Below, one piece after another: positions 6,388-60,895 of a DNA stretch of 64,000 nt (the stretch's first letter is position 1; each line of letters begins with the position of its first letter). Made by a program: the position numbers and the translations under genes. The stretch spans positions 4,151-68,150 of the forward strand of contig CAYRXT010000003.1 in NCBI GenBank assembly GCA_964428315.1, in the 5' to 3' direction. The notes under the pieces are model-generated. The model was given only the letters and a program-made list of their open reading frames with translations. It did not search any database and had not been told where the DNA came from. Source of the DNA: an uncultured Planctomycetales bacterium (GTDB lineage Bacteria > Omnitrophota > Gorgyraeia > Zapsychrales > CAYRXT01).

Positions 6388-6529
6388 AATATCATCGCTG
6401 TCTGAATTGCTCGCGAGTGACCACAGGGAGCGGCGAAGCCCCCTGCGGGGAAGCGATCTTATACTCGACAGTCAGGATTGCTTCAGCCGCTGTGCCCCTT
6501 CGCAATTATACTTTTGCCCTTCCCGCTAT

Positions 6530-9845: not shown

Positions 9846-9848
9846 CTG

Positions 9849-9966
9849 GGTCCCCGCTTAAGGCATGCCTCGAAGGGGTCTAATCAACGGGGATGACAGG
9901 TTCCTTTAACCGTGTTATGCCCGCCGAGTTGCCCCCCTTGGGGGCGTAAGCGGGCTTCCCGCATCA
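9849..9966. repeat. structured intergenic repeat element, copy A (~118 nt)
   Basis: Shares with 15090..15201 a 12-nt left arm (cccgcttaaggc), a ~33-nt conserved core (gatgaNag..cctttaacNgtgtYatgcccgccgag) and a right arm (ggggcgNaagcgggc). The right arm is the near reverse complement of the left arm, giving a closing stem. Confidence 0.6.
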
Positions 9967-15043: not shown

Positions 15044-15089
15044 GAGACTTCCTTTTTTCCGACGGTTTTCTTTTTTTTACATCCTCTTT

Positions 15090-15201
15090 GGATGCCCGCT
15101 TAAGGCGTACGGCCGACAGCGCCTCTGTGAGGGAGATGAAAGTCCCTTTAACTATGTCATGCCCGCCGAGCAGGCCCATTAAGGGGCGGAAGCGGGCATC
15201 C
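15090..15201. repeat. structured intergenic repeat element, copy B (~112 nt)
   Basis: See copy A. ggatgcccgcttaaggcg...tccctttaactatgtcatgcccgccgag...ggggcggaagcgggcatcc, where the outer arms are inverted repeats. Confidence 0.6.
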
Positions 15202-15210
15202 AGGTCATTC

Positions 15211-36088: not shown

Positions 36089-36342
36089 GTCGATGTCTTC
36101 TTGCCAGCCTCGGCCTTAACATACTCCATGATAGCATTCAATGAATTCAGCCTGTCGATGTCATTTTCGGGAATATCAGACAATCCAAATTTTTCCTGAA
36201 CATTCAAAAATAAAGTCATGACATCCAGAGAATCAATGCCGAGTTCACTTAGCCGGCGCTCCCAGTTCGCCTCATCGGCCAGCATGTCCGTTGATACAAA
36301 CTCTCCGACCATTTCCGCAATCTTTTGTTTAATGTCCTGCAT
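36085..36342 (-). CDS. acyl carrier protein (dedicated)
   Basis: 85 aa with ...LGIDSLDVMTL..., where the Ser of DSL is the phosphopantetheine attachment motif. Confidence 0.75.
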   Translation of the reverse strand: MQDIKQKIAEMVGEFVSTDMLADEANWERRLSELGIDSLDVMTLFLNVQEKFGLSDIPENDIDRLNSLNAIMEYVKAEAGKKTST

Positions 36343-36352
36343 AATCCTCTCC

Positions 36353-48559: not shown

Positions 48560-50292
48560 CGTTTTAGCCTGTTGGACTGCTTCATCTTGTGCAGAATGTG
48601 TTGGATGCGGATACCTTTTTCTAAATCAATCGGGGAATCGGCGTCCCCGTTGACACACTGCACAAAGCATGCGATCTCGCGTTTATATATAGCGTCGATC
48701 TCCTTGGCCCTGCAAAACACTTGCCATCGGTTCTTTTTCACTTCATAGACCTTAACAACACCTTTCAAAAGATCACAAACAATCGCACCCTTTTCACCGA
48801 TTACATCCATTGTCCGCGTTGTGGGTCTCATAATGTAATCCGCGTGGCACTGCATAATAAAATTTTCATGGAATTTAATCAACAACTCGGCAGTATCTTC
48901 CACATCCGTTTTCAAAGAGGTGCGCCTATCCGCCCAACAAAATATTTCTTTCACCTCTCCGAACAAAAACCCTGCATTGAACACGTGATGGCTCAATGTG
49001 TCCAAAATCACGCCGCCTCCAAGGATCCTCCGAGCCCCGTACTCTGTGCTATAATCCTGCGTGGGGTGCCTGTCCGGAAGATAAGAACCGGCAAATGTCT
49101 TGGCTGAAATCAGAGGACCGATAATCCCTGATTGTAATATTTTTTTAACAGTGTTAAGACACTGGCTGAACGCGTTATTATAACCTATAAAAGTAACCAG
49201 CCGCTTCTTTCCGACAATATCGAGAAGACTGTCCAGGCCCCTCATATTATGGGAAAGCGGCTTTTCGATAAAAAGATGACAGCCTTGCTTCGCGGCTTTC
49301 AAGGCGTAGGGGACATGCAGAGAAGTCGGCGTCGTAATGAATACGGCGTCAGGTTTTGATTCCCAGCAGGCCTTCAACTCCGTCAAACATGCAATGTTGG
49401 AAGATATCTTTCTAACCTCAACAAATCGTGAAGGATCAATATCGTAAGCCAAAAGACGTCCGGCCTTCTGGGCCAGCAAATTCTTCAAGTGCCTCTGTCC
49501 GATGGATCCGCACCCGATGACAAGGAACGTCTTGATCCTTCTTTTGGCCTTCTGGATAAAATCCGGATTTCTCTTCTGCGCGGACATCTCTTTAAACATC
49601 GCTTTATGCCGGGAATAATACCGGACGATGTCCTTCAAGCCGAAATTTTCGTTGGCCTTCTTCATGTCCGCGACCATAATGTTGATGGTCTTGAGGTCAA
49701 CGGGATAATCAACAGTCAAATGGATATGGGAATAGTCTTTGTTCAACCGCAATCTGTTGATCTTGAACTCCTTCTGCTGTCTCATCCACCTGTTGGGGAA
49801 TTCGCGGAAAAAAGGATCCTCCAGATTCTTGGCGAGATAACGCAGCAGTGCCCCGGAATAGATTTCCGCGTTGAGCCCGAAGGGAAATGTCAGCGGGATG
49901 TTATTGGTTGTGTACGGCTTTTTGTTCTTCAGGCTTTTGAGAACCATGCGGTCGATCCAGACAGGATCAATCAAAGGACAGTCTCCCCACACGCGCACCA
50001 CCCAGTCCGCCTTAAACTTCCGGCACGCGCCGTCGAGGCGGCCGACGATGTCCTCGTTCGCGCCCCGGGAATACGGGATCTTTTTCCTCTTCAGAAAGGC
50101 CGCCAGCTTATCGTCGCTGGAACGGCGGGTCGTCGCGACACAAACCTGGTCGACCAGGCGGCACTTTTTCAGCCGCCCAGCAATGAATTCGACCATCGGT
50201 TTGCCGCCGATCTTCTTAAGCGGCTTGCCGGGAAGACGGCTGGACCCCATCCTGGACTGAATGAGCGCTATGACCTTTGCCTTCTTCTTCAT
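48538..50292 (-). CDS. fusion protein: SpsF-like cytidylyltransferase (N-terminal) plus Gfo/Idh/MocA oxidoreductase (C-terminal)
   Basis: N-terminus KVIALIQSRMGSSRLPGKPL (cytidylyltransferase). C-terminal half IKTFLVIGCGSIGQRHL...IEKPLS... (Gfo/Idh/MocA Rossmann plus EKP motif). Confidence 0.65.
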   Translation of the reverse strand: MKKKAKVIALIQSRMGSSRLPGKPLKKIGGKPMVEFIAGRLKKCRLVDQVCVATTRRSSDDKLAAFLKRKKIPYSRGANEDIVGRLDGACRKFKADWVVRVWGDCPLIDPVWIDRMVLKSLKNKKPYTTNNIPLTFPFGLNAEIYSGALLRYLAKNLEDPFFREFPNRWMRQQKEFKINRLRLNKDYSHIHLTVDYPVDLKTINIMVADMKKANENFGLKDIVRYYSRHKAMFKEMSAQKRNPDFIQKAKRRIKTFLVIGCGSIGQRHLKNLLAQKAGRLLAYDIDPSRFVEVRKISSNIACLTELKACWESKPDAVFITTPTSLHVPYALKAAKQGCHLFIEKPLSHNMRGLDSLLDIVGKKRLVTFIGYNNAFSQCLNTVKKILQSGIIGPLISAKTFAGSYLPDRHPTQDYSTEYGARRILGGGVILDTLSHHVFNAGFLFGEVKEIFCWADRRTSLKTDVEDTAELLIKFHENFIMQCHADYIMRPTTRTMDVIGEKGAIVCDLLKGVVKVYEVKKNRWQVFCRAKEIDAIYKREIACFVQCVNGDADSPIDLEKGIRIQHILHKMKQSNRLKRWVRICD

Positions 50293-51464
50293 GAACTTTT
50301 TAACTCCTTCCTCAAACTCTTGATGACATGACGAACCTGCCTGGTGTCCATCCGGGGATGCAACGGGATTGAGACCGTCCCGGCATAATGGCCCTCGGCA
50401 CAGGGAAAGTCCTTGGGGGACAAACGGAAATATTTCCTATAAAACGGCTGACGGTAAAGCGGTATGTAATGGACCTGTGTCTGGACTCCCTTTCTCTGGA
50501 GCCGTTCCATAAACTTTTTCCTCGTCGTTTTCCTTTTCGCGAAATCAACACGCAAGACGTACAGATGCCAGCCGTGCCTTTTCCCCTGCCCTCCGTCGTC
50601 CGGCAGGACCAGTCCGTCAATATCCTGTAAGGCCTCCGAATAGGCCTTCGCGATCTCTGTCCGCTTCGCGATAAAGCCAACCGCCTTTTTGAGCTGGCTC
50701 AGCCCCAGTGCGCACTGAACATCGGTGATGCGGTAATTGAACCCCAGCTCCCGCATCTCGTGATACCACGACCCAACCGAATGCGCCATGCCGGGGGTCT
50801 TGGTAACGCCGTGCGTCCGCAAAGCGCGAAGGCGTTCATAAAAGCCTTTATCATTCGTCGTGATCATGCCGCCTTCACCGGTGGTGATGGTCTTCAGGGG
50901 ATGGAAGCTGAAAACCGTCATGGCCGAGTGCCGGCAGGACCCGACCTTAACCCGGCGCCCCTGATGTCTGTACGCCGCGCCGAGCGCGTGGCAGGCATCC
51001 TCGATGACAGTAAGTTTCCCGCGTTTTGCCGCCGCGGCGATGCGCGGCATATCACAGGGCAGTCCGGCGAAATGGACGGGCAGGACCGCCTTTGTCCTTT
51101 GGTTTATCCTTTTTTCCAGTTCTCCGGGATCGATGTTTCCCGTCCGCAAATCGATATCGGCGAACACCGGACGCCCGCCGGCATAGACAACGGCATTGGC
51201 CGTGGCCATGAAGGTGACAGGCGAGGTGACGGCCTCATCGCCTTTTTTGAGGCCTGCCGCCAGGCAGGCCAGATGGAGCGCCGCCGTCCCGCTCGAGACC
51301 GCCACGGCATAACGGCTCCCGCAATAGCGCGCGAAGGCCTTTTCAAATTCTGCGACCTTCGGCCCCTGTGTCAGCCAGTCTGATTTAAGGACCCGGACGA
51401 CTTCCCGGATATCGTGATCATCAATCGACTGCCTTCCATAGGTAATGCCTTTCTTTGTCCCCAT
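50289..51464 (-). CDS. pseC: UDP-4-amino-4,6-dideoxy-N-acetyl-beta-L-altrosamine transaminase (PseC-like DegT aminotransferase)
   Basis: ITYGRQSIDDHDIREVVRVLKSDWLTQGPKVAEFEKAFARYCGSRYAVAVSSGTAALH is the PseC-type N-terminus. The Lys is in ...FSFHPLKTITTGEGG. Confidence 0.75.
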   Translation of the reverse strand: MGTKKGITYGRQSIDDHDIREVVRVLKSDWLTQGPKVAEFEKAFARYCGSRYAVAVSSGTAALHLACLAAGLKKGDEAVTSPVTFMATANAVVYAGGRPVFADIDLRTGNIDPGELEKRINQRTKAVLPVHFAGLPCDMPRIAAAAKRGKLTVIEDACHALGAAYRHQGRRVKVGSCRHSAMTVFSFHPLKTITTGEGGMITTNDKGFYERLRALRTHGVTKTPGMAHSVGSWYHEMRELGFNYRITDVQCALGLSQLKKAVGFIAKRTEIAKAYSEALQDIDGLVLPDDGGQGKRHGWHLYVLRVDFAKRKTTRKKFMERLQRKGVQTQVHYIPLYRQPFYRKYFRLSPKDFPCAEGHYAGTVSIPLHPRMDTRQVRHVIKSLRKELKSS

Positions 51465-51466
51465 CC

Positions 51467-52432
51467 TTATTCTTCCTCTTTTGCGATCTTCTGCAATGCC
51501 TCGACAGACAACCATTGCGTGTTGTTGTCACTGCGGTATCCCTCAAAATGCTCGTCCAGAGGCCTGCCTCCGTTTTTGCGTTCCTTGTGGCGGACGACAA
51601 ACGGATACGTGATGAAACGGTCTTCATACTCATACGTGTAGATGCCGTCGTCTTTGGTCACGAGGATCTCGTGAAGTTTTTCCCCGGCGCGGATTCCGAT
51701 AATGTCCTGTTTGCATTCCGGGCAGATGGCGCGCGCCAGATCGGTAATCTTCATGCTGGGGATCTTGGGGATAAACACCTCGCCTCCCTGCATGTCGTCC
51801 ATACATTTCATGACGAATTCAACGCCCCGCTGGAGGGTGATCCAGAAACGCGTCATCCGCTCGTCCGTGATGGGCACCGCGCCCTTTTGGCGGCATTCCA
51901 CGAAAAACGGCACCACGCTTCCCCGCGAACCGAAGACGTTGCCGTAACGGGCCACGCTGAATTTCGTCCCAAAAGGAGAATAATTGTTGGCCGCCACGAA
52001 CATCTTTTCCATGCACAGCTTCGTCGCCCCGTAGAGGTTGATGGGATTCGCAGCCTTGTCCGTGCTCAGGGCGATCAGCTTTTTCACCCCGCAGTCTATG
52101 GCCGTGTTGATCACGTTCTCCGCGCCGATCACGTTGGTCTTGACGGCCTCGAACGGGTTGTATTCCGCCGTCGGGACGATCTTCAGGGCCGCGGCATGGA
52201 CAACGATGTCTACGCCGTTGAACGCCCGTCGAAGCCGCTCGGGATCCCTCACGTCACCGATGAAATAGCGGATGGCGGGGTGAGCGAAATGCTGGCTCAT
52301 CTCGTATTGCTTCATCTCGTCGCGGCTGAAGATGATGAGTTTTTTCGGCCGATGCCTCGAGAGCAGGGTCTCGGTAAATTTTTTGCCGAACGACCCCGTA
52401 CCGCCCGTAACCAAAATGGTCTTTCCGTCCAT
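51467..52432 (-). CDS. pseB: UDP-N-acetylglucosamine 4,6-dehydratase (inverting), PseB/FlaA1-like
   Basis: ILVTGGTGSFGKKF, ...STDKAANPINLYGATK... About 320 aa, PseB/CapD short form. Confidence 0.8.
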   Translation of the reverse strand: MDGKTILVTGGTGSFGKKFTETLLSRHRPKKLIIFSRDEMKQYEMSQHFAHPAIRYFIGDVRDPERLRRAFNGVDIVVHAAALKIVPTAEYNPFEAVKTNVIGAENVINTAIDCGVKKLIALSTDKAANPINLYGATKLCMEKMFVAANNYSPFGTKFSVARYGNVFGSRGSVVPFFVECRQKGAVPITDERMTRFWITLQRGVEFVMKCMDDMQGGEVFIPKIPSMKITDLARAICPECKQDIIGIRAGEKLHEILVTKDDGIYTYEYEDRFITYPFVVRHKERKNGGRPLDEHFEGYRSDNNTQWLSVEALQKIAKEEE

Positions 52433-52456
52433 GCGTTCTCCTTCAGTTCTTTTCCG

Positions 52457-54277
52457 TCATTTTTGCAGTGAATCCATCAGATAAAATTTTCCCTTCCTGG
52501 CCAGAAGCTCCTGATAGGTGCCGGCCTCGCAGATCCGTCCGTCTTCAAGGACATAGATCACATCCGCGGTTTTTACCGTCGAAAGCCGGTGGGCCACCAT
52601 GACAATGGTCAGATGGTCCTTGAGTGACTGTATCGTATCCTGGATCATGCGTTCCGATTCCGAATCGAGTTCGCTGGTGGCCTCGTCCAGTATCAGCAGT
52701 TTCGGTTGTGTCAAAAGGGCTCTCGCGATGGCCACGCGCTGGCGCTGTCCTCCGGAAAGTTTGATGCCATTTTCCCCGATCACCGTGTCCCACCTCCTCG
52801 GCCACTGTCCGACAAAATCCAGGATATGGGCCCTTCGCCCGGTCTCTTCCAACAACGCCTCATCGGCAACCGGATTGGCCACGGTCAGGTTTTCCCTGAG
52901 CGTGCCGTCCAGAAGGGACGGCTGCTGCGTCACGTAAGCGATCTTCTTGCGTAACGACCGCTTGTCCAGATCACCATGGGGCACCTCCCCGTAATAGATC
53001 GCACCTTCCTGCGGCGAGATAAGACGGAGAATCAGATCAAGCACCGTTGATTTTCCGGCTCCTGATCCCCCTACAATGGCCACGGTCGTACGCGGTTCGA
53101 CCACCATGTTCAGCCCGTCCAGGACCCTGCCGCCGGCCGGATAAGAAAAAACCACGTCGGTGAAACGGATCGGCTTGTCTTCGCAAAAGGACTGTCCGCC
53201 GTTGTCCTCCTGATGCGCCTCGAGTTCGCCCAGGTGTCTCTGCAGGGAACGGTGCATCGGCATGGTGCTGTCGAGAACGGCGTAGATCGTCGCCAGGGCC
53301 GTGAACTGGGGCGCGATCCGGAAAAAGATCAGCAGGATTACCAACAGCGTCGCGTAATCCAATGACAGCGCCTCATGGAAAAATATGATAAGTAAAAGGA
53401 AGGCCGACGTGGCGACCATGCTCCACATCCGCTGGAATTCCATGTGCACATACTGCCTCTTGTAGGACCGGCTGACCTGCAGGATCAAATCCAGTATCTT
53501 CTTAATGAACGCCCCCCCCAGAAGCGACGTCTTGAAAAATTTTCTGTTCTGCTGGAAACCCGTCATCACGTTGGAGAAGGCCGTCAGCTGGAGATTGTAT
53601 CTGTCCGCTATACGGTAAACGAAGCTTGAATTGATGATGCTGACCAGGCCTATAATGGCGTAAATTCCCAGGGCCAGAAGGGTAACCGGAAAAGATAGTG
53701 TCATCGCTATGGCCAGAAAGACAAAGACCTGGAAAAAGTTGATGAGGACCCGCTGGGCGCTCAGGTGGGCCTCGCTCGCCAGCTGGGCCTCCTGGATCAC
53801 CGCGTAAAAGACGCCGCCCGAGCGGCTCTCGGTCAGCCATAACCAGTCGGCCGTTAAATACCGGTTGAATATCCTTTCCCGGTAGGATCTCAGGAGCCTT
53901 TCTCTGGCAAAGGCCGCGATCAGGCTCGAGACGCTCACCAGCACCTGGCCCGCGATGATAAAAATTCCCGCCGATACCAGCAGGACATGAAAAGACGGCT
54001 CGATACCCATAGCCTGCAGGGGCTTGACGACGAACGGCAGCAGCCCGCCGCCGCCATCCGCCGTTTGACCGCCCCGCATGAATTCCAGGACCGGGATCAG
54101 GACCGGGAGCCCCACGAAACTCGCCGCGCCGCTGACAGCCTGCGTCAAGAGGATCCACCCGAAATACGGCGTCGAAACAATAAGCCGAGATATATATCTC
54201 AGCTTTCTCCAGACCTTATTCAGCATTTCCAGGCACCACATTTTTTCCGAAGGGGATTCTGTTCCACAACCGCTCAT
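52457..54277 (-). CDS. ABC exporter, fused TMD-NBD (MsbA/PglK/Wzk-like lipid-linked glycan flippase candidate)
   Basis: Six-TM N-terminal half. Walker A GGSGAGKST, ABC signature LSGGQRQRVAIARAL, Walker B LILDEATSELD. True start may be M13 or M18 (54241 or 54226). Confidence 0.85.
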   Translation of the reverse strand: MSGCGTESPSEKMWCLEMLNKVWRKLRYISRLIVSTPYFGWILLTQAVSGAASFVGLPVLIPVLEFMRGGQTADGGGGLLPFVVKPLQAMGIEPSFHVLLVSAGIFIIAGQVLVSVSSLIAAFARERLLRSYRERIFNRYLTADWLWLTESRSGGVFYAVIQEAQLASEAHLSAQRVLINFFQVFVFLAIAMTLSFPVTLLALGIYAIIGLVSIINSSFVYRIADRYNLQLTAFSNVMTGFQQNRKFFKTSLLGGAFIKKILDLILQVSRSYKRQYVHMEFQRMWSMVATSAFLLLIIFFHEALSLDYATLLVILLIFFRIAPQFTALATIYAVLDSTMPMHRSLQRHLGELEAHQEDNGGQSFCEDKPIRFTDVVFSYPAGGRVLDGLNMVVEPRTTVAIVGGSGAGKSTVLDLILRLISPQEGAIYYGEVPHGDLDKRSLRKKIAYVTQQPSLLDGTLRENLTVANPVADEALLEETGRRAHILDFVGQWPRRWDTVIGENGIKLSGGQRQRVAIARALLTQPKLLILDEATSELDSESERMIQDTIQSLKDHLTIVMVAHRLSTVKTADVIYVLEDGRICEAGTYQELLARKGKFYLMDSLQK

Positions 54278-54443
54278 GGACGAAATAAAGAACCATTTTC
54301 ACAAGGGCCTCCACCCCTCCGACAGAGACGGCCAAAACGATCTTCCCGGTAAAAATATATACGATCAATGTCGTGGTCAACGTGGCCAGGCACCGCCAGG
54401 ACAGGGCCTTCAAGAGAGAACGGCGTTTTCTTTCGCTAAACAT
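54216..54443 (-). CDS. DUF2061 small membrane protein
   Basis: ...RKRRSLLKALSWRCLATLTTTLIVYIFTG...GVEALVKMVLYFVHERLWNRI... matches the DUF2061 consensus. Start at M41 of the ORF-track translation. Confidence 0.5.
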   Translation of the reverse strand: MFSERKRRSLLKALSWRCLATLTTTLIVYIFTGKIVLAVSVGGVEALVKMVLYFVHERLWNRIPFGKNVVPGNAE

Positions 54444-54454
54444 ATGACCTCGCT

Positions 54455-55282
54455 TTATTGATAAAATCCCCGCACATAATTCATTTTCATCAACACCAGG
54501 GCCCAAAGTGAACCCGTAATATCCCGAAATAACCGAACCTTGGAGCGCCGGTCGTTTCGCCACAGCACCGGGACCTCGCAGATATTCAGACGGTGAAGCA
54601 GCGCGATATAAATCAGTTCCGTGTCAAAGGCCCAGCTGCAGATCCTCTGCCGAGAAAAAATAATCTCCGCCGCCTGCCGGGAATACATTTTAAAACCGCA
54701 GGTGAAATCGCTGATGCGCGAACCGGTCATCCACTGCGAGAGCCGCCGGAATCCCTCACCGAAAAATCTGCGCGCCCAGGGCTGTTTCTCCTGATAGGAA
54801 TCGCTTCTCATCCGCCGGCTTCCGATAATGACATCACAGTGATCTTCATCGGCCTTCTTCATAAATTCTTCAACCGCCCGCAGATCCGTCGAAAGATCAA
54901 CATCCATGAACAAACGGTAATCCCCCCCGGCCCGCTGCATCCCGTGACGGATCGCGTACCCCTTGCCGCGGTTCTGTTCATATCCGGCAACCCGGACCGT
55001 ATCCGACTCCAGACTTTGGGCAATCTCCCTCGTCCTGTCGTTCGAGCCATCGTCCACAATGATGATCTCATAACCCATATCCAGCGCATCCAGCTTTTCC
55101 TGTAGTGAGGCCACGTTCCTGGATAATGTCATCTCCTCATTGAAAGCGGGTAAAATCACAGACAGCAATGTTCTCCCTCCGTCACTCCGGTCAAGTATGC
55201 CCAGCGGTCCCGGCCTTCCTTCTCCTCCAGCCGATCCCTTGCGCAATAACGGAATCCCAGCACCATCCCACAAAAAAGGCAT
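54455..55282 (-). CDS. GT2 polyprenyl-phosphate sugar synthase-like glycosyltransferase
   Basis: ...LLSVILPAFNEEMTL...IIVDDGSNDRT...MDVDLSTD... True start is probably downstream of the ORF-track M (a non-ATG start is likely), because the 5' end overlaps the upstream GT-C gene by ~90 nt. Confidence 0.7.
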   Translation of the reverse strand: MPFLWDGAGIPLLRKGSAGGEGRPGPLGILDRSDGGRTLLSVILPAFNEEMTLSRNVASLQEKLDALDMGYEIIIVDDGSNDRTREIAQSLESDTVRVAGYEQNRGKGYAIRHGMQRAGGDYRLFMDVDLSTDLRAVEEFMKKADEDHCDVIIGSRRMRSDSYQEKQPWARRFFGEGFRRLSQWMTGSRISDFTCGFKMYSRQAAEIIFSRQRICSWAFDTELIYIALLHRLNICEVPVLWRNDRRSKVRLFRDITGSLWALVLMKMNYVRGFYQ

Positions 55283-56558
55283 AAAGGGCCATAACCCAAA
55301 CTATTTGCCTATGCAGAAACCAGTATCCGGCATGCAAATCGGCAAGGAGTTTCAACTGGATCGGTACAATGACCACAATCAGAAAGAAACCGACCTGCCG
55401 ATAGCGTTCTTTATGGGGTATGATAAAGGCCAGCAGAATTCCGTTAATAAGCCATTTCAATTTCTTGACCCCCGTCATGTTGCCGAACACGGTCCTCAGG
55501 AAGTTGTTCAAATTGACGATAGGATTGGGAATATAATCGAAGGTGTTCATTCCCACTTTGGTGGCGAAAGAATAGGACAGCGTGGTGCCTCCGGTGGCAT
55601 ACCAGAAAAAAACCAGCATCCCGGCAAGGCCGAAAGGCCACCAGCCGCGCACGACGGATCGGCAAACATCCTTCAGCGGCCTGTGCTCAGTTTCGGACAG
55701 CACAAAAAACAACAGGCAGCAGCCGATTATCATTATGCCGTAGGCATGGTACATCACTGTGAGGACAAGGAACAAGCCGATCATGGTCTTGCGCAGAGAG
55801 CCCAGCCTTTCCGGCCGGACAATCTTATCCCCGAGATAAAAAACAATCAGGGCCAGGGTCGGCAAAACCGCGTACGGTCTGAATTCGAAGGCATGATAGA
55901 CCAGGTTTTTGTTTAAGCTGTATAGGGCAAAGGCCGCCGTGAATCCCGCGAGCGTCCTGAAATATTGGCGGCAAAGCAGATAGAGCACGATAAACCCGGC
56001 TATGCTGAACAGGATATGCGGGATCGCCAATCCCCATTTGTTGTGGCCAAAGATCTGGACGAAAGGATAATTGAGCAGATACTCTCCTGGAAAACAGGTG
56101 CGTTCCCCGTATGTCAGCCTTAACCAGAAGGGTTTGAACGGGCCGAGGGTGTTCTTGATCTGGTTCAACTCGTCGGTCCAGAGATTCCTGTTCGCCAGAG
56201 TCTGAAAACGCCAATAAAGACCAACCATCGTGAAAACGAGAGCCACGATCGGCCTGATAGACCGGCTATGCCATTTACCTTTATTGTTTCGGCAAAAACG
56301 GCCGAGCCATTTTCTGATTCCCGGTACTGGCGGCCAATCAGAAAAGCGCCGGGCGCGTCCCCCTTCCATTCCCGAGGGATCTCCCGGCCTTTCCCCGTCG
56401 TATGCGAGAAACAGGCAGTATCCCTGCCGGATGAAAGGACGGGACATCATCCTGATATTGGCCAGTGAAAGGCAGATGCGGCGGGCAAGGCGGTTTCGGC
56501 TTCCGGATGCATGTGGCGCAAAGGCAGAAATGAGCTCTAACTCTTTTTGCTTGAGCAT
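55191..56558 (-). CDS. GT-C fold membrane glycosyltransferase (ArnT/PMT-like)
   Basis: Ten or more TM helices from ...IVALVFTMVGLYWRF... onward. The ORF-track start (56585) is a TTG inside the promoter/operator; the first ATG is at 56558. The ~100 N-terminal residues are Arg-rich and may not be coding. Confidence 0.45.
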   Translation of the reverse strand: MLKQKELELISAFAPHASGSRNRLARRICLSLANIRMMSRPFIRQGYCLFLAYDGERPGDPSGMEGGRARRFSDWPPVPGIRKWLGRFCRNNKGKWHSRSIRPIVALVFTMVGLYWRFQTLANRNLWTDELNQIKNTLGPFKPFWLRLTYGERTCFPGEYLLNYPFVQIFGHNKWGLAIPHILFSIAGFIVLYLLCRQYFRTLAGFTAAFALYSLNKNLVYHAFEFRPYAVLPTLALIVFYLGDKIVRPERLGSLRKTMIGLFLVLTVMYHAYGIMIIGCCLLFFVLSETEHRPLKDVCRSVVRGWWPFGLAGMLVFFWYATGGTTLSYSFATKVGMNTFDYIPNPIVNLNNFLRTVFGNMTGVKKLKWLINGILLAFIIPHKERYRQVGFFLIVVIVPIQLKLLADLHAGYWFLHRQIVWVMALYAFFVGWCWDSVIAQGIGWRRRKAGTAGHT

Positions 56559-56578
56559 GTTTATTGTCTTAAAAATAA

Positions 56579-56595
56579 TGTTCAATGATTGAACA
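56579..56595. promoter_or_regulatory. perfect 7-3-7 palindrome tgttcaa-tga-ttgaaca overlapping the predicted +1 of the sigma70 promoter (candidate operator)
   Basis: Direct reading: tgttcaatgattgaaca is its own reverse complement. It lies 3-16 nt downstream of the -10 hexamer. Confidence 0.5.
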
Positions 56596-56597
56596 AC

Positions 56598-56625
56598 ATT
56601 ATAAACATACCAGCTTGAGTGTCAA
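56598..56625 (-). promoter_or_regulatory. near-consensus sigma70 promoter (TTGACA-N16-TATAAT) heading the minus-strand super-operon
   Basis: The reverse complement of 56591..56630 reads atttcTTGACActcaagctggtatgttTATAATgttgttc. The -35 is at 56620..56625 and the -10 at 56598..56603, with a 16-nt spacer, inside a 160-bp AT-rich island. Confidence 0.55.
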
Positions 56626-56745
56626 GAAATAAACGGAGAGCAATTTATATGAAATAGTTTATAACTTACTGCAAATACAATAGTTGCAAATATCCTGGCC
56701 CGGGGGTGGATTTTTTTTCATATAAGTACTAATAGTTCTAGTATG

Positions 56746-58146
56746 TTATATAAATTTTAGACTTCTGCAAGCAATCCCGCACATTTTCAATAGAAGCTGG
56801 CCATGGCGGAACCGGCTTATCTGGGATGAACCGTACCGGCGGGCCTGATAACGCACAGGAAGATCGGTAATTTTCAAATTAAGCTTTGCGGCCCCAAAAA
56901 GCAAATCAAAATCCCCAAAGGGGTCCATCTCTCCGAAAGAGGAACGTTGCGCCATAATGTTTTCATAATGCCCTCTGGTGACAACCTTCGTCCCGCACAG
57001 CGTATCCTTGACGTCCTGTCCGAGCAACCAGGAAAACAATATGGAAAAGAATTTATTGGCAACCCGGTTCAGAAATCGCATGGCATGAGGCTCCATGGGA
57101 TAAACAAGACGGCACCCGTTGATCAATTCCCCTTTATTCGTCAACAAGGCCTCATAAAATTTTGTGAGCTCCTCAGGTGGCACGGTCAAGTCCGCATCGA
57201 GGATCATAAAGATGTCATGGCGGGCCTCGCGGAAACCGAGACGCACGGCATCGGCCTTCCCCCGCCCTTCCTGACGTATGAACCGGACGGATTTATCCGG
57301 ATAGGCTCGGATGACACTTTCGATCTCCTGAGAAGTCCCGTCATCGGAACCTCCTTCCACGAAAATTATCTCCTGCTGACCGGCCATCGAGGGAATCCGA
57401 CGGACGGCCTCCTCGATGTTGCCTTTTTCGTTCTTGGCCGGGATCACCACGCTGACCGAACGGGCATCAACGGCCTCACACCGAGGCCTGGCCACGACAA
57501 AATGATTGAGTGTCAGCGCCTCGAACAAGGGCAGCCGCGCCAAAAATCGGTTTAAAAATGCACTGACAAAGAAAATCCTTTTGGGAAAGAGCGTACAGCG
57601 GGCCTTGCGCACGGTCTCCCAGCCGCTCAAACGCAGAAAGTTGGCGATGTCGTGATAGGTCAGCCAGTTCTGTTCCGGCTGGGGAATCTTCCACCCGCAT
57701 CTTTCTCCGAGCCGCAAGATACACTGCCAAAGGTAAGAGTAATACTCAATGATCACACGGGTACCGGGATGGCACCATTGTTTTAAACCTTCAAAAAATG
57801 CCTGGATATCATCCAGTTCGCCGACAAGACCCGAAAGGATGATATAGTCGAACGGTTCGTCACTGGACCAGTCATCAAGCGCACAGGCTTCGAAATGCAG
57901 ATGGGGGAATTTCTCACGGGCGATGCGGATGGCCTCCGCACTGATATCGATCCCCGCACCGTAAGCGGGCCGCACGGCATTTAGCAGTTCACCCGTTGAA
58001 CAGCCGACTTCCAGGACGCGCTTGTGCGGCGGGATGAAAAAAGCGTACTGCTTGAAAAGGAGCTGATAATAATAGGCGTTTCGATGGAAAAAATCGTCGC
58101 GGCGCGGCGCGAGCCGGTCATAATGTTCGGCAAGATGATCTTTCAT
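56746..58146 (-). CDS. bifunctional class I SAM-methyltransferase (N-terminal) / GT2 glycosyltransferase (C-terminal)
   Basis: N-terminus ...RVLEVGCSTGELL...DYIILSGLVGELDD... (MTase). C-terminus ...VSVVIPAKNEKGNIE...FVEGGSDDGT...LDADLTVPPEE... (GT2). Confidence 0.7.
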   Translation of the reverse strand: MKDHLAEHYDRLAPRRDDFFHRNAYYYQLLFKQYAFFIPPHKRVLEVGCSTGELLNAVRPAYGAGIDISAEAIRIAREKFPHLHFEACALDDWSSDEPFDYIILSGLVGELDDIQAFFEGLKQWCHPGTRVIIEYYSYLWQCILRLGERCGWKIPQPEQNWLTYHDIANFLRLSGWETVRKARCTLFPKRIFFVSAFLNRFLARLPLFEALTLNHFVVARPRCEAVDARSVSVVIPAKNEKGNIEEAVRRIPSMAGQQEIIFVEGGSDDGTSQEIESVIRAYPDKSVRFIRQEGRGKADAVRLGFREARHDIFMILDADLTVPPEELTKFYEALLTNKGELINGCRLVYPMEPHAMRFLNRVANKFFSILFSWLLGQDVKDTLCGTKVVTRGHYENIMAQRSSFGEMDPFGDFDLLFGAAKLNLKITDLPVRYQARRYGSSQISRFRHGQLLLKMCGIACRSLKFI

Positions 58147-58269
58147 GAGCGAGAATTGGTTCTGCGTGCAGGCACTCCTAGCGACGACCCGGCCTCCTGG
58201 ACCGGATGACTGCGGATAATCTCTCCTTTTTGCCTGCCGTCACGCGGATTCCATGTTATAATATCATCC

Positions 58270-59151
58270 GTGATGCGGCCTCTCACAGAAATTTTTAATC
58301 AAAAGAAACGCACCTTTTCCTTTGAACTGTTTCCGCCCAAGACGCCGGAAGGTTATAAGAGACTGCTCTCGACGATCGAGCGGCTCGCACTGCTCCAGCC
58401 GGATTTCATATCCGTCACCTACGGCGCCGGCGGGGGCAACCGCGAAAAGACCCTCGATATCGTCGAGCACATCCAGACAAGGCACAAGATCACCGGCGTG
58501 GCGCATCTGACCTGCGTCCGGCACACGAAAAAGGAGATCGCGCGCATCGTCAATGATATCCGCCAGCGCGGAATCCGGAACATCCTCGCGCTGCGGGGCG
58601 ATCCGCCGCGCGAGGACCCCGACTGGCAGCCGACCGAAGTCAACTTCCGCTTCAGCTACGAACTCACCCGGTTTATCCATGACAATCATCCCGGCCAGTT
58701 TGCCGTCGGTGTGGCGGGCTTTCCGGAAGGCCATGTCCTTTGTCCCGACAAAGATTTAGACGCGCGGTACCTCAAGATGAAGATCGACGCGGGGGCTGAT
58801 TATGTCATCACCCAGCTTTTTTTCGATAACCGGGATTACTTCGACTATGTCGGCCGCCTGCGCAATCTCGGCGTGGAGAAACGTATCATCCCCGGCATCG
58901 TACCCATCACGGATTTTAAGGGTATCGTGAAATTCTGCCGCAGCTGCGGGGCCACGATCCCTTCAAAAATGCGATCGATTTTTGAGCCGATTCAGGATGA
59001 CAAAGAGGCCGTCATGCAGGCGGGCATCGACTACTGCCGTGAACAATGCCGGCAGCTGCTGGCCGGTGGCGCGCCGGGTATCCACTTTTACGCGCTTAAC
59101 AAATCCCATCCCGTGGACGTGATCCTTCCGGCATTAAGGCAACTCCCCTGA
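58270..59151 (+). CDS. metF: 5,10-methylenetetrahydrofolate reductase
   Basis: ...FSFELFPPKT...ISVTYGAGG... are MTHFR signatures. 293 aa. Confidence 0.85.
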   Translation: MMRPLTEIFNQKKRTFSFELFPPKTPEGYKRLLSTIERLALLQPDFISVTYGAGGGNREKTLDIVEHIQTRHKITGVAHLTCVRHTKKEIARIVNDIRQRGIRNILALRGDPPREDPDWQPTEVNFRFSYELTRFIHDNHPGQFAVGVAGFPEGHVLCPDKDLDARYLKMKIDAGADYVITQLFFDNRDYFDYVGRLRNLGVEKRIIPGIVPITDFKGIVKFCRSCGATIPSKMRSIFEPIQDDKEAVMQAGIDYCREQCRQLLAGGAPGIHFYALNKSHPVDVILPALRQLP

Positions 59152-60763: not shown

Positions 60764-60895
60764 TCAGGCCGTTCCTTCATTTTTTTTGCTATGATAACAT
60801 TTTTATACGATTTGTGAATTCATGCAAGAATTTTCCAAGATTTCTGGTAAGATAACATGGTCTTTTGTTCAGTTTGTCCAATAACAGGATAACCC

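Follow-up and report, generated by a model that had tools for sequence, protein, structure and literature searches.

A consensus sigma-70-type promoter with a candidate winged-helix operator on its predicted start, ahead of a chain of glycan genes in an Omnitrophota genome

The window analysed here is a stretch of 64,000 nucleotides (64 kb) from an uncultured Omnitrophota bacterium. Logan assemblies of two sequencing runs match it at 100% identity, and its nearest neighbours in protein comparisons indicate Candidatus Omnitrophota. Between positions 650 and 58146 it holds about 50 co-directional minus-strand genes over ~57 kb. As listed in Table 1, the upstream end of this chain is formed by a methyltransferase-GT2 fusion gene (MT-GT2), followed by an AT-rich island, by a 455-aa open reading frame (ORF) ending in a GT-C glycosyltransferase domain and by genes for a GT2, a DUF2061 protein, an ABC exporter, a PseB-like dehydratase and a DegT aminotransferase, past which roughly 45 more co-directional genes extend to about position 650. 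Pfam thus confirms the GT-C, GT2, DUF2061, ABC and Pse genes that the original prediction had placed in one controlled operon, but the first ORF appears to open with the remnant of a regulator gene and not with the start of the GT-C gene. Gaps of more than 100 nt within the chain are few (6388-6529, 9846-9963, 15044-15210 and 36089-36352), and no sigma-70 match of 10/12 or better was found in them.

Table 1. Features of the promoter region and its neighbouring genes (window coordinates).
Feature	Position	Strand	Remarks
-35 hexamer TTGACA	56620..56625	-	Identical in L004, L007, L017, L155, L157, L159
-10 hexamer TATAAT	56598..56603	-	16-nt spacer from -35; kept in every related module
Putative operator, 7-3-7 palindrome TGTTCAA-TGA-TTGAACA	56579..56595	.	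~-3 to +14 of predicted start
Predicted transcription start	56589..56592	-	Placed by geometry, 6-9 nt past -10
AT-rich upstream region	56626..56745	-	T-rich tract beside -35 (UP-element-like); no terminator
AT-rich island	56559-56745		Between MT-GT2 and 455-aa ORF
Apparent decayed 5' remnant of MarR_EPS-like wHTH regulator gene, 48 codons	56415..56558	-	ATG 56558
GC-rich stretch, leader or linker	56247..56414	-	In frame with remnant and GT-C
Conserved core of PMT_2-like GT-C glycosyltransferase	55191..56246	-	Pfam PMT_2; homologs align from residue ~100
455-aa ORF ending in PMT_2/GT-C domain	55191-56558	-	Pfam PMT_2
GT2, DUF2061, ABC exporter, PseB-like dehydratase, DegT aminotransferase	50289..55168	-	Pfam; downstream, co-directional
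MT-GT2	56746..58146	-	Pfam; upstream of promoter, co-directional
MTHFR	58270-59151	+	Divergent from MT-GT2

The minus strand of the island carries TTGACA-N16-TATAAT (56625..56598), which in a consensus scan matches sigma-70 at 12/12 positions and has its hexamers within the 16-18 nt spacing of a sigma-70-type promoter. It is the sole site in the whole window, on either strand, to reach 11/12 or better; the intergenic runner-up, at 60818, reaches 10/12. The island is AT-rich, with a GC content of about 0.33 (0.34 for 56500-56699 and 0.325 for 56600-56799) compared with about 0.50-0.62 in the flanks. The 17-bp palindrome begins 2-3 nt past the -10 hexamer, where it overlies the promoter and the predicted start. 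It occurs once in the window, and the pattern, exact or with up to three mismatches, is expected 0.15 times in shuffled sequence. The island, the consensus promoter and the palindrome on the predicted start had all been described in the original prediction, and all are borne out.

The site had also been called the entry point of a super-operon, and this stands in part. No other promoter candidate for the ~55 kb of genes downstream comes close to it, and no second operator-bearing promoter was found in the 64 kb. However, MT-GT2 lies upstream in the same direction, and the fold of 56626-56760 (z = -0.76) contains no hairpin with a U-tract, i.e. no terminator, so that the promoter sits inside a run of genes on one strand. 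An invertible promoter was considered and rejected: the inverted repeats of the region are only short and AT-rich, and none brackets the promoter.

Some further features of the MT-GT2 region were noted. MT-GT2 has a promoter-like region of its own, which it has in common with the divergent MTHFR gene. In the stretch 58250-58275, a perfect TATAAT on the plus strand (58257-58262) precedes the GTG/ATG start of MTHFR (58270/58273) by only 7 nt, a distance suggestive of a leaderless MTHFR mRNA. The same AT-palindrome supplies the divergent MT-GT2 with a TATTAT that has a TG upstream. Within the coding sequence of MT-GT2, at 57987-58001, there is another exact core site, GTTCACCCGTTGAAC, with no adjoining -10 hexamer. 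About 0.03 such sites are expected, and the letters encode the SAM-binding methyltransferase motif I (VLEVGCSTGEL). This copy is probably due to chance; it may also be a roadblock site.

The combination of promoter and palindrome recurs as a module in other genomes. In a first scan the fetched loci were searched for TGTTCAA-N3-TTGAACA, and one match was found outside the window's own contigs, in an Omnitrophica WOR_2 MAG (L007). The L007 palindrome lies about 400 nt upstream of a GT-C homolog and belongs to a module, TTGACA-N16-TATAAT-A-TGTTCAA-CAA-TTGAACA-N10-ATG, that heads a divergently transcribed 195-aa winged-helix gene. The arms are the same in L007 and near-identical in L004, L017, L029 and L155. 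The module reads TTGACA-N16-TATAAT-G-TGTTCAC-TAT-TTGAACA in L004 and TTGACA-N16-TATAA[T]GTTCAC-AAA-TTGAACA in L017; L029, an Elusimicrobia locus with TATAA[T]GTTCAC-TCA-TTGAACA, has kept the -10 hexamer and the palindrome only. Regulator homologs adjoin the GT-C gene in L004, L017 and L029, with the module upstream of each. The GT-C proteins of L004, L007 and L017 are 46-51% identical to the window protein (~30-51% with L029 included). In the window, L007, L004 and L017 the hexamers and arms are conserved, the palindrome follows the -10 hexamer by 0-2 nt, and the 16-nt spacers are unrelated. This pattern is a phylogenetic footprint across distant Omnitrophota and Elusimicrobia genomes and not a product of chance, and the base-for-base conservation gives strong support to the core of the original prediction, a consensus promoter whose predicted start carries a protein-binding palindrome and which would control glycan genes.

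A metagenome search with 24 fixed bases (TTGACA-N16/17-TATAAT-N0-3-GTTCA-N4-TTGAACA) extended the comparison. The palindrome, unique in the window, was yet found in this way ahead of regulator or glycan genes in at least 120 metagenome contigs (about 0 expected by chance, by our estimate), which answers the proposal that further copies be sought and decides the refuting condition of the original prediction, a palindrome without copies elsewhere, in that prediction's favour; since the pattern demanded perfect hexamers and arms, these instances cannot serve to measure variability. Among the matches listed, a regulator homolog comes directly after the module in 86/126 instances and the others mostly head polysaccharide genes (GT2, UDP-GlcNAc 2-epimerase, NAD-dependent epimerase/dehydratase). 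The module is also found ahead of a NusG paralog (L085), a dTDP-sugar-isomerase/WxcM-like protein, ABC-2 (Wzm), Wzz and ABC exporters. In 97 of the 114 unique modules among the matches listed, the final T of the -10 hexamer is also the first base of the palindrome, which places the putative operator under RNA polymerase. The window, with its gap of 3 nt, belongs to a minority spacing class, and among the matches listed the gap-2/3 geometry precedes regulator genes in 10/12 cases. Sixteen extra core sites in the loci directly follow -10-like hexamers, where our estimate from the motif frequency over 0.94 Mb is about 0.5.

Upstream of the -35 hexamer, a T-rich tract is the sole conserved feature of the 114 modules listed. 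The original prediction had drawn attention to tandem half-sites and to a short CxxC ORF in this part of the window. Both are present, the former as the direct repeat TGCAAATA at 56670-56677 and 56685-56692 (period 15) and the latter as the 20-codon minus-strand ORF MKKNPPPGQDICNYCICSKL at 56721..56659, but neither has a counterpart in the 114 other modules listed.

The association also holds in an unbiased check that starts from the protein. Regulator genes found by protein searches have the palindrome upstream in 7/7 cases (L004, L007, L017, L029, L155, L157 and L159) and the full TTGACA/TATAAT promoter in six of the seven, the exception being L029. The three regulator genes chosen from the protein search in addition to those of L004, L007, L017 and L029 (P0199, P0220 and P0202) have promoter and palindrome upstream, and all three stand at the head of a sugar-nucleotide/glycan operon. 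The gene order in L155, MTHFR / epimerase, GT-C / module-regulator-epimerase-DegT, is a close echo of that in the window.

The related loci provide several additional observations. An MTHFR homolog recurs beside the regulator or GT-C gene in L017, in L155/L156 and in six metagenome loci, as it does in the window, so that a folate enzyme shows a conserved linkage with glycan loci. At 3900-4000 of L155 there is a variant operator, TGTTCAG-CAA-CTGAACA, with a symmetric change at arm position 7, and in L159 the palindrome begins 11 nt past the -10 hexamer, compared with 0-3 nt elsewhere. A second identical operator, GTTCACTTCTTGAAC, follows the module of L071 (contig Ga0272441_10289305) by about 45 nt, which gives tandem operators. 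On three contigs (L053, L054 and L089) two or three modules precede different genes: regulator and Wzz; epimerase; and duplicated sugar-isomerase genes. Several modules on one contig are direct evidence for what would be multi-operon regulons in one genome.

The regulator family comprises more than 546 protein clusters of ~190 aa, the N-terminal 100 residues of which are extremely conserved. The L007 regulator passes the Pfam HTH_24 cut-off (3.6e-7; 30.1 bits, cut-off 21.9), falls under the gathering cut-off of Pfam MarR (PF01047; 21.5 bits, cut-off 24.6) and matches TIGR04176 (MarR_EPS) with an E value of 2.7e-12, below the cut-off for membership. The ~190-aa family scores 46.7, 49.6 and 51.9 bits against TIGR04176, under the cut-off of 88, while a short protein behind the L071 module scores 129.6 bits and is a bona fide member. 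An AlphaFold model of the regulator (pLDDT 83) shows a winged helix-turn-helix (wHTH; residues 8-66), a long helix (68-105) and a small alpha/beta domain (110-178). Its best local structural matches are the MarR-type proteins MepR, MexR and HcaR; no whole-chain match was found in the PDB (TMq at most 0.39), nor did a PDB sequence search with the regulator profile give a match. The family resides in polysaccharide loci, with GT-C, GT2, epimerases, DegT, NTP-transferases, Wzz and Wzm as neighbours. The family is conserved in Omnitrophota and is related to TIGR04176 MarR_EPS. A literature search found no paper on the family, its operator or any Omnitrophota regulon, and no published operator or experiment for TIGR04176.

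In the relatives the candidate cognate wHTH gene lies beside the putative operator, whereas the window has only a 48-codon remnant of it. The remnant ORF begins 20 nt past the palindrome and can be aligned to residues 5-52 of the regulator without gaps and right from its beginning. It is 29% identical to the L007 regulator over 48 aa (BLASTP, E = 2e-6), aligns to the family profile with E = 4.2e-5 (hhalign) and, of the 833 ORFs in the window, is the only one that the family HMM matches; it has no match to TIGR04176. At the nucleotide level it shares 45-51% with intact regulator genes, and codon position 2 is no better conserved than the rest; the intact genes are 68-72% identical among themselves, and 90-94% at codon position 2. 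Many family-invariant residues have been replaced (N15, I16, G18, Q25, R26, S29, G37, N40, R45 and K49), and nothing beyond residue 52 is left, with wing, dimerisation helix and C-terminal domain all absent. We interpret the ORF from ATG 56558 as a truncated, decayed regulator gene, which would not mark the GT-C start. The locus thus displays decay of a regulator gene with the promoter and operator retained for the downstream operon. All 26 of the 26 promoter and operator bases are intact beside a remnant of ~50% identity, which argues for selection continuing to act on the switch and, in turn, for a regulator that is probably supplied in trans.

From these observations we propose a strong sigma-70-type promoter, the start of which would be covered by the operator of a dimeric wHTH regulator, and which at this locus would place a glycan operon under control in trans. 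We consider this model as a whole to be probable. For its individual parts, the palindrome is very probably a protein operator of this wHTH family, given its recurrence with the regulator genes. Judged by position alone, it is likely to act by repression, because RNA polymerase would cover the site and the promoter requires no activator, an arrangement typical of autoregulation. A bound wHTH dimer would occlude RNA polymerase at -3..+14, and a ligand sensed by the C-terminal alpha/beta domain would relieve the repression. In the relatives, the module heads the regulator's own gene, usually the first of a sugar-nucleotide/glycan operon, and would there serve autoregulation; as it also stands ahead of other glycan operons, these together would form a regulon. 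In the window the module would feed transcription straight into the GT-C, GT2, DUF2061, ABC exporter and Pse genes and whatever follows them in the chain, and regulation would need an intact paralog elsewhere in the genome.

As the 64 kb of the window hold no intact regulator, control would have to come in trans, or else the operator could be orphaned. In the latter case the promoter would fire constitutively and the palindrome would be a relic left after the regulator was lost from the genome. This is what one might suppose from the remnant being the only regulator-like sequence in the window and from the single operator-bearing promoter within it. We nevertheless regard a fossil as unlikely: the operator has kept 14/14 specified bases, in perfect symmetry, next to 144 nt that have drifted to the identities given above, the regulator family is widespread, and its absence is a statement about 64 kb only.

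It is also improbable that another factor binds the site, or that the wHTH protein acts on it as an activator instead of a repressor. Some MarR/SlyA-type proteins are activators or anti-silencers, and the AT-richness of the island would suit such a role. The promoter, however, matches the consensus at every position and so needs no activator, and the site is downstream of the -10 hexamer, not at -40 to -90. The co-occurrence with one regulator family, both in the pattern-found sites among the matches listed and ahead of every protein-search regulator gene, likewise points to that family and not to another factor.

The model of a repressor acting in trans leaves 104 codons (56247-56558) between the promoter and the GT-C core to be accounted for. 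In about 120 GT-C homologs, of 350-385 aa, similarity to the 455-aa ORF sets in no earlier than residue ~90-110, the alignment begins at the same place in tblastn comparisons with 30 genomic loci, and on the window DNA homologs align from about 56260 onward only. The GT-C gene therefore does not start next to the promoter, which corrects its start for this locus. There is no close relative, the best GT-C homolog being only 58% identical to the window protein. The candidate starts are GTG 56246, ATG 56369 and, if the ORF is a fusion, ATG 56558. Shine-Dalgarno (SD) sequences are AGG at GTG 56246 and GGAG at ATG 56369, with none at ATG 56558; a 4-5-nt SD is present in about 40% of genes, and the SD leaves the three starts undiscriminated. 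We note that start calls conflict, one assembly having GTG 56246 (351 aa) and L002 having ATG 56558; public databases are likely to annotate the protein inconsistently.

The composition of the extra codons is not that of a gene. The codon score of 56247-56558 is 0.013 (5th percentile of genuine genes, 0.12; off-frame mean, -0.40), that of 56247-56369 is -0.16, which is non-coding-like, and GC by codon position is flat across 56247-56558. A phmmer search with the 100-aa N-terminal extension against 1.8 billion representative proteins gave one match, which is a translated tandem repeat and therefore spurious. No Rfam family reached its gathering score anywhere in the window, a search of 56000-57000 up to E 10 gave no match with E<0.1, and the fold of the 366-nt putative leader RNA is not unusual (z = -1.16). 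Plus-strand ORFs at 56230-56592 and 56268-56468 were rejected as genes on their non-coding codon scores. L028, in which a tblastn match had seemed to span query residues 26-436, was likewise set aside, being a frameshifted GT-C gene with no wHTH extension; the split homolog (L028 300-1430, from an Omnitrophota MAG) is a pseudogene or an assembly error. The extra codons are quite likely remnant plus leader and not a functional domain.

The competing reading of this stretch is a true fusion, in which the 455-aa GT-C protein is translated from ATG 56558 and carries a vestigial cytoplasmic wHTH N-terminus derived from an in-frame deletion. The vestige might possibly still bind DNA, as a membrane-tethered autoregulator touching its own operator, and a membrane enzyme would then have been born from its own repressor gene. 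The frame is open over 104 codons into GT-C, as happens in only 4% of shuffles; ATG 56558 keeps the position and the short SD-less leader typical of the regulator genes of relatives; and the L002 gene call starts there. We nonetheless find a fusion quite improbable. Such an extension is present in 0 of about 120 GT-C homologs and is without a homolog among the representative proteins apart from the tandem-repeat match; the tail beyond the remnant is open by chance in 15% of shuffles; and the codon score, the flat GC by codon position, the lack of conservation at codon position 2, the replacement of most family-invariant residues and the loss of the wing, dimerisation helix and C-terminal domain all argue against it.

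Finally, a role for the palindrome as a nucleic-acid structure (a transcript-stabilising 5' RNA hairpin or an attenuator) is highly improbable: although it would fold in RNA as a 7-bp hairpin and the arms of the L155 variant have changed symmetrically, a transcript from those modules in which, among the matches listed, it begins at the last -10 base would begin within the left arm or at the centre, which makes the hairpin impossible, the arms are conserved in sequence and not covarying (asymmetric C/T at arm position 7 in L004, L017 and L029), no U-tract follows, and the tight link to the gene of a DNA-binding protein is a classic autoregulation signature.

The uncultured bacteria of the phylum Omnitrophota are often ultra-small and may live attached to hosts, and their surface glycans are likely to be central to this lifestyle. 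A literature search found nothing published on gene regulation in the phylum. The repressor model offers a regulatory code, in which one operator, GTTCA-N4-TTGAAC, is fused to a consensus promoter, together with a candidate cognate regulator family and a predicted regulon for glycan synthesis and export. On the sequence comparisons made here, the module apparently represents an undescribed, phylum-wide glycan regulon in Omnitrophota.

The closest known systems are the MarR-family autorepressors, such as E. coli MarR/marO, S. aureus MepR and P. aeruginosa MexR. In these a dimeric winged-helix protein binds a short palindromic operator over the -10/+1 region of its own gene's promoter, the regulator gene opens the operon under control, and repression is relieved by a ligand. 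In the relatives the present module has the same architecture, with the putative operator over -10/+1 and the regulator as first gene, and the structural matches of the regulator include MepR and MexR. The Omnitrophota family differs in its long helix and extra ~70-aa alpha/beta C-terminal domain, and its module stands ahead of glycan genes, where the known systems control efflux or stress genes. TIGR04176 MarR_EPS (NCBIfam 'MarR family EPS-associated transcriptional regulator') likewise consists of wHTH regulators within polysaccharide loci, and its member in L071 is encoded behind the very same promoter and operator module; the ~190-aa family is about 85 aa longer.

Two other systems share individual features. 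The Gram-positive LexA/Cheo box, GAAC-N4-GTTC, is a repressor site over strong promoters and has the GTTC/GAAC half-site letters in common with the present operator. Here, however, the half-sites are reversed and differently spaced (GTTCA-N4-TTGAAC, i.e. GTTC-N7-GAAC), neither lexA nor SOS genes occur in the neighbourhood, and the genes behind the site serve glycan synthesis. The capsular-polysaccharide loci of Bacteroides use invertible promoters and UpxY/UpxZ, with dedicated regulators as first operon genes. They resemble the loci described here in that a regulator comes first in a glycan operon and that one module heads a NusG paralog (L085), but the present promoter has no flanking inverted repeats and no invertase, and the control proposed is by an operator on the start site. 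The module and its regulator would thus belong to a kind of switch that is already known, the MarR-like autoregulated repressor and operator, here in an apparently undescribed regulon of glycan loci; the particular feature of the window is the decay of the regulator gene with promoter and operator kept.
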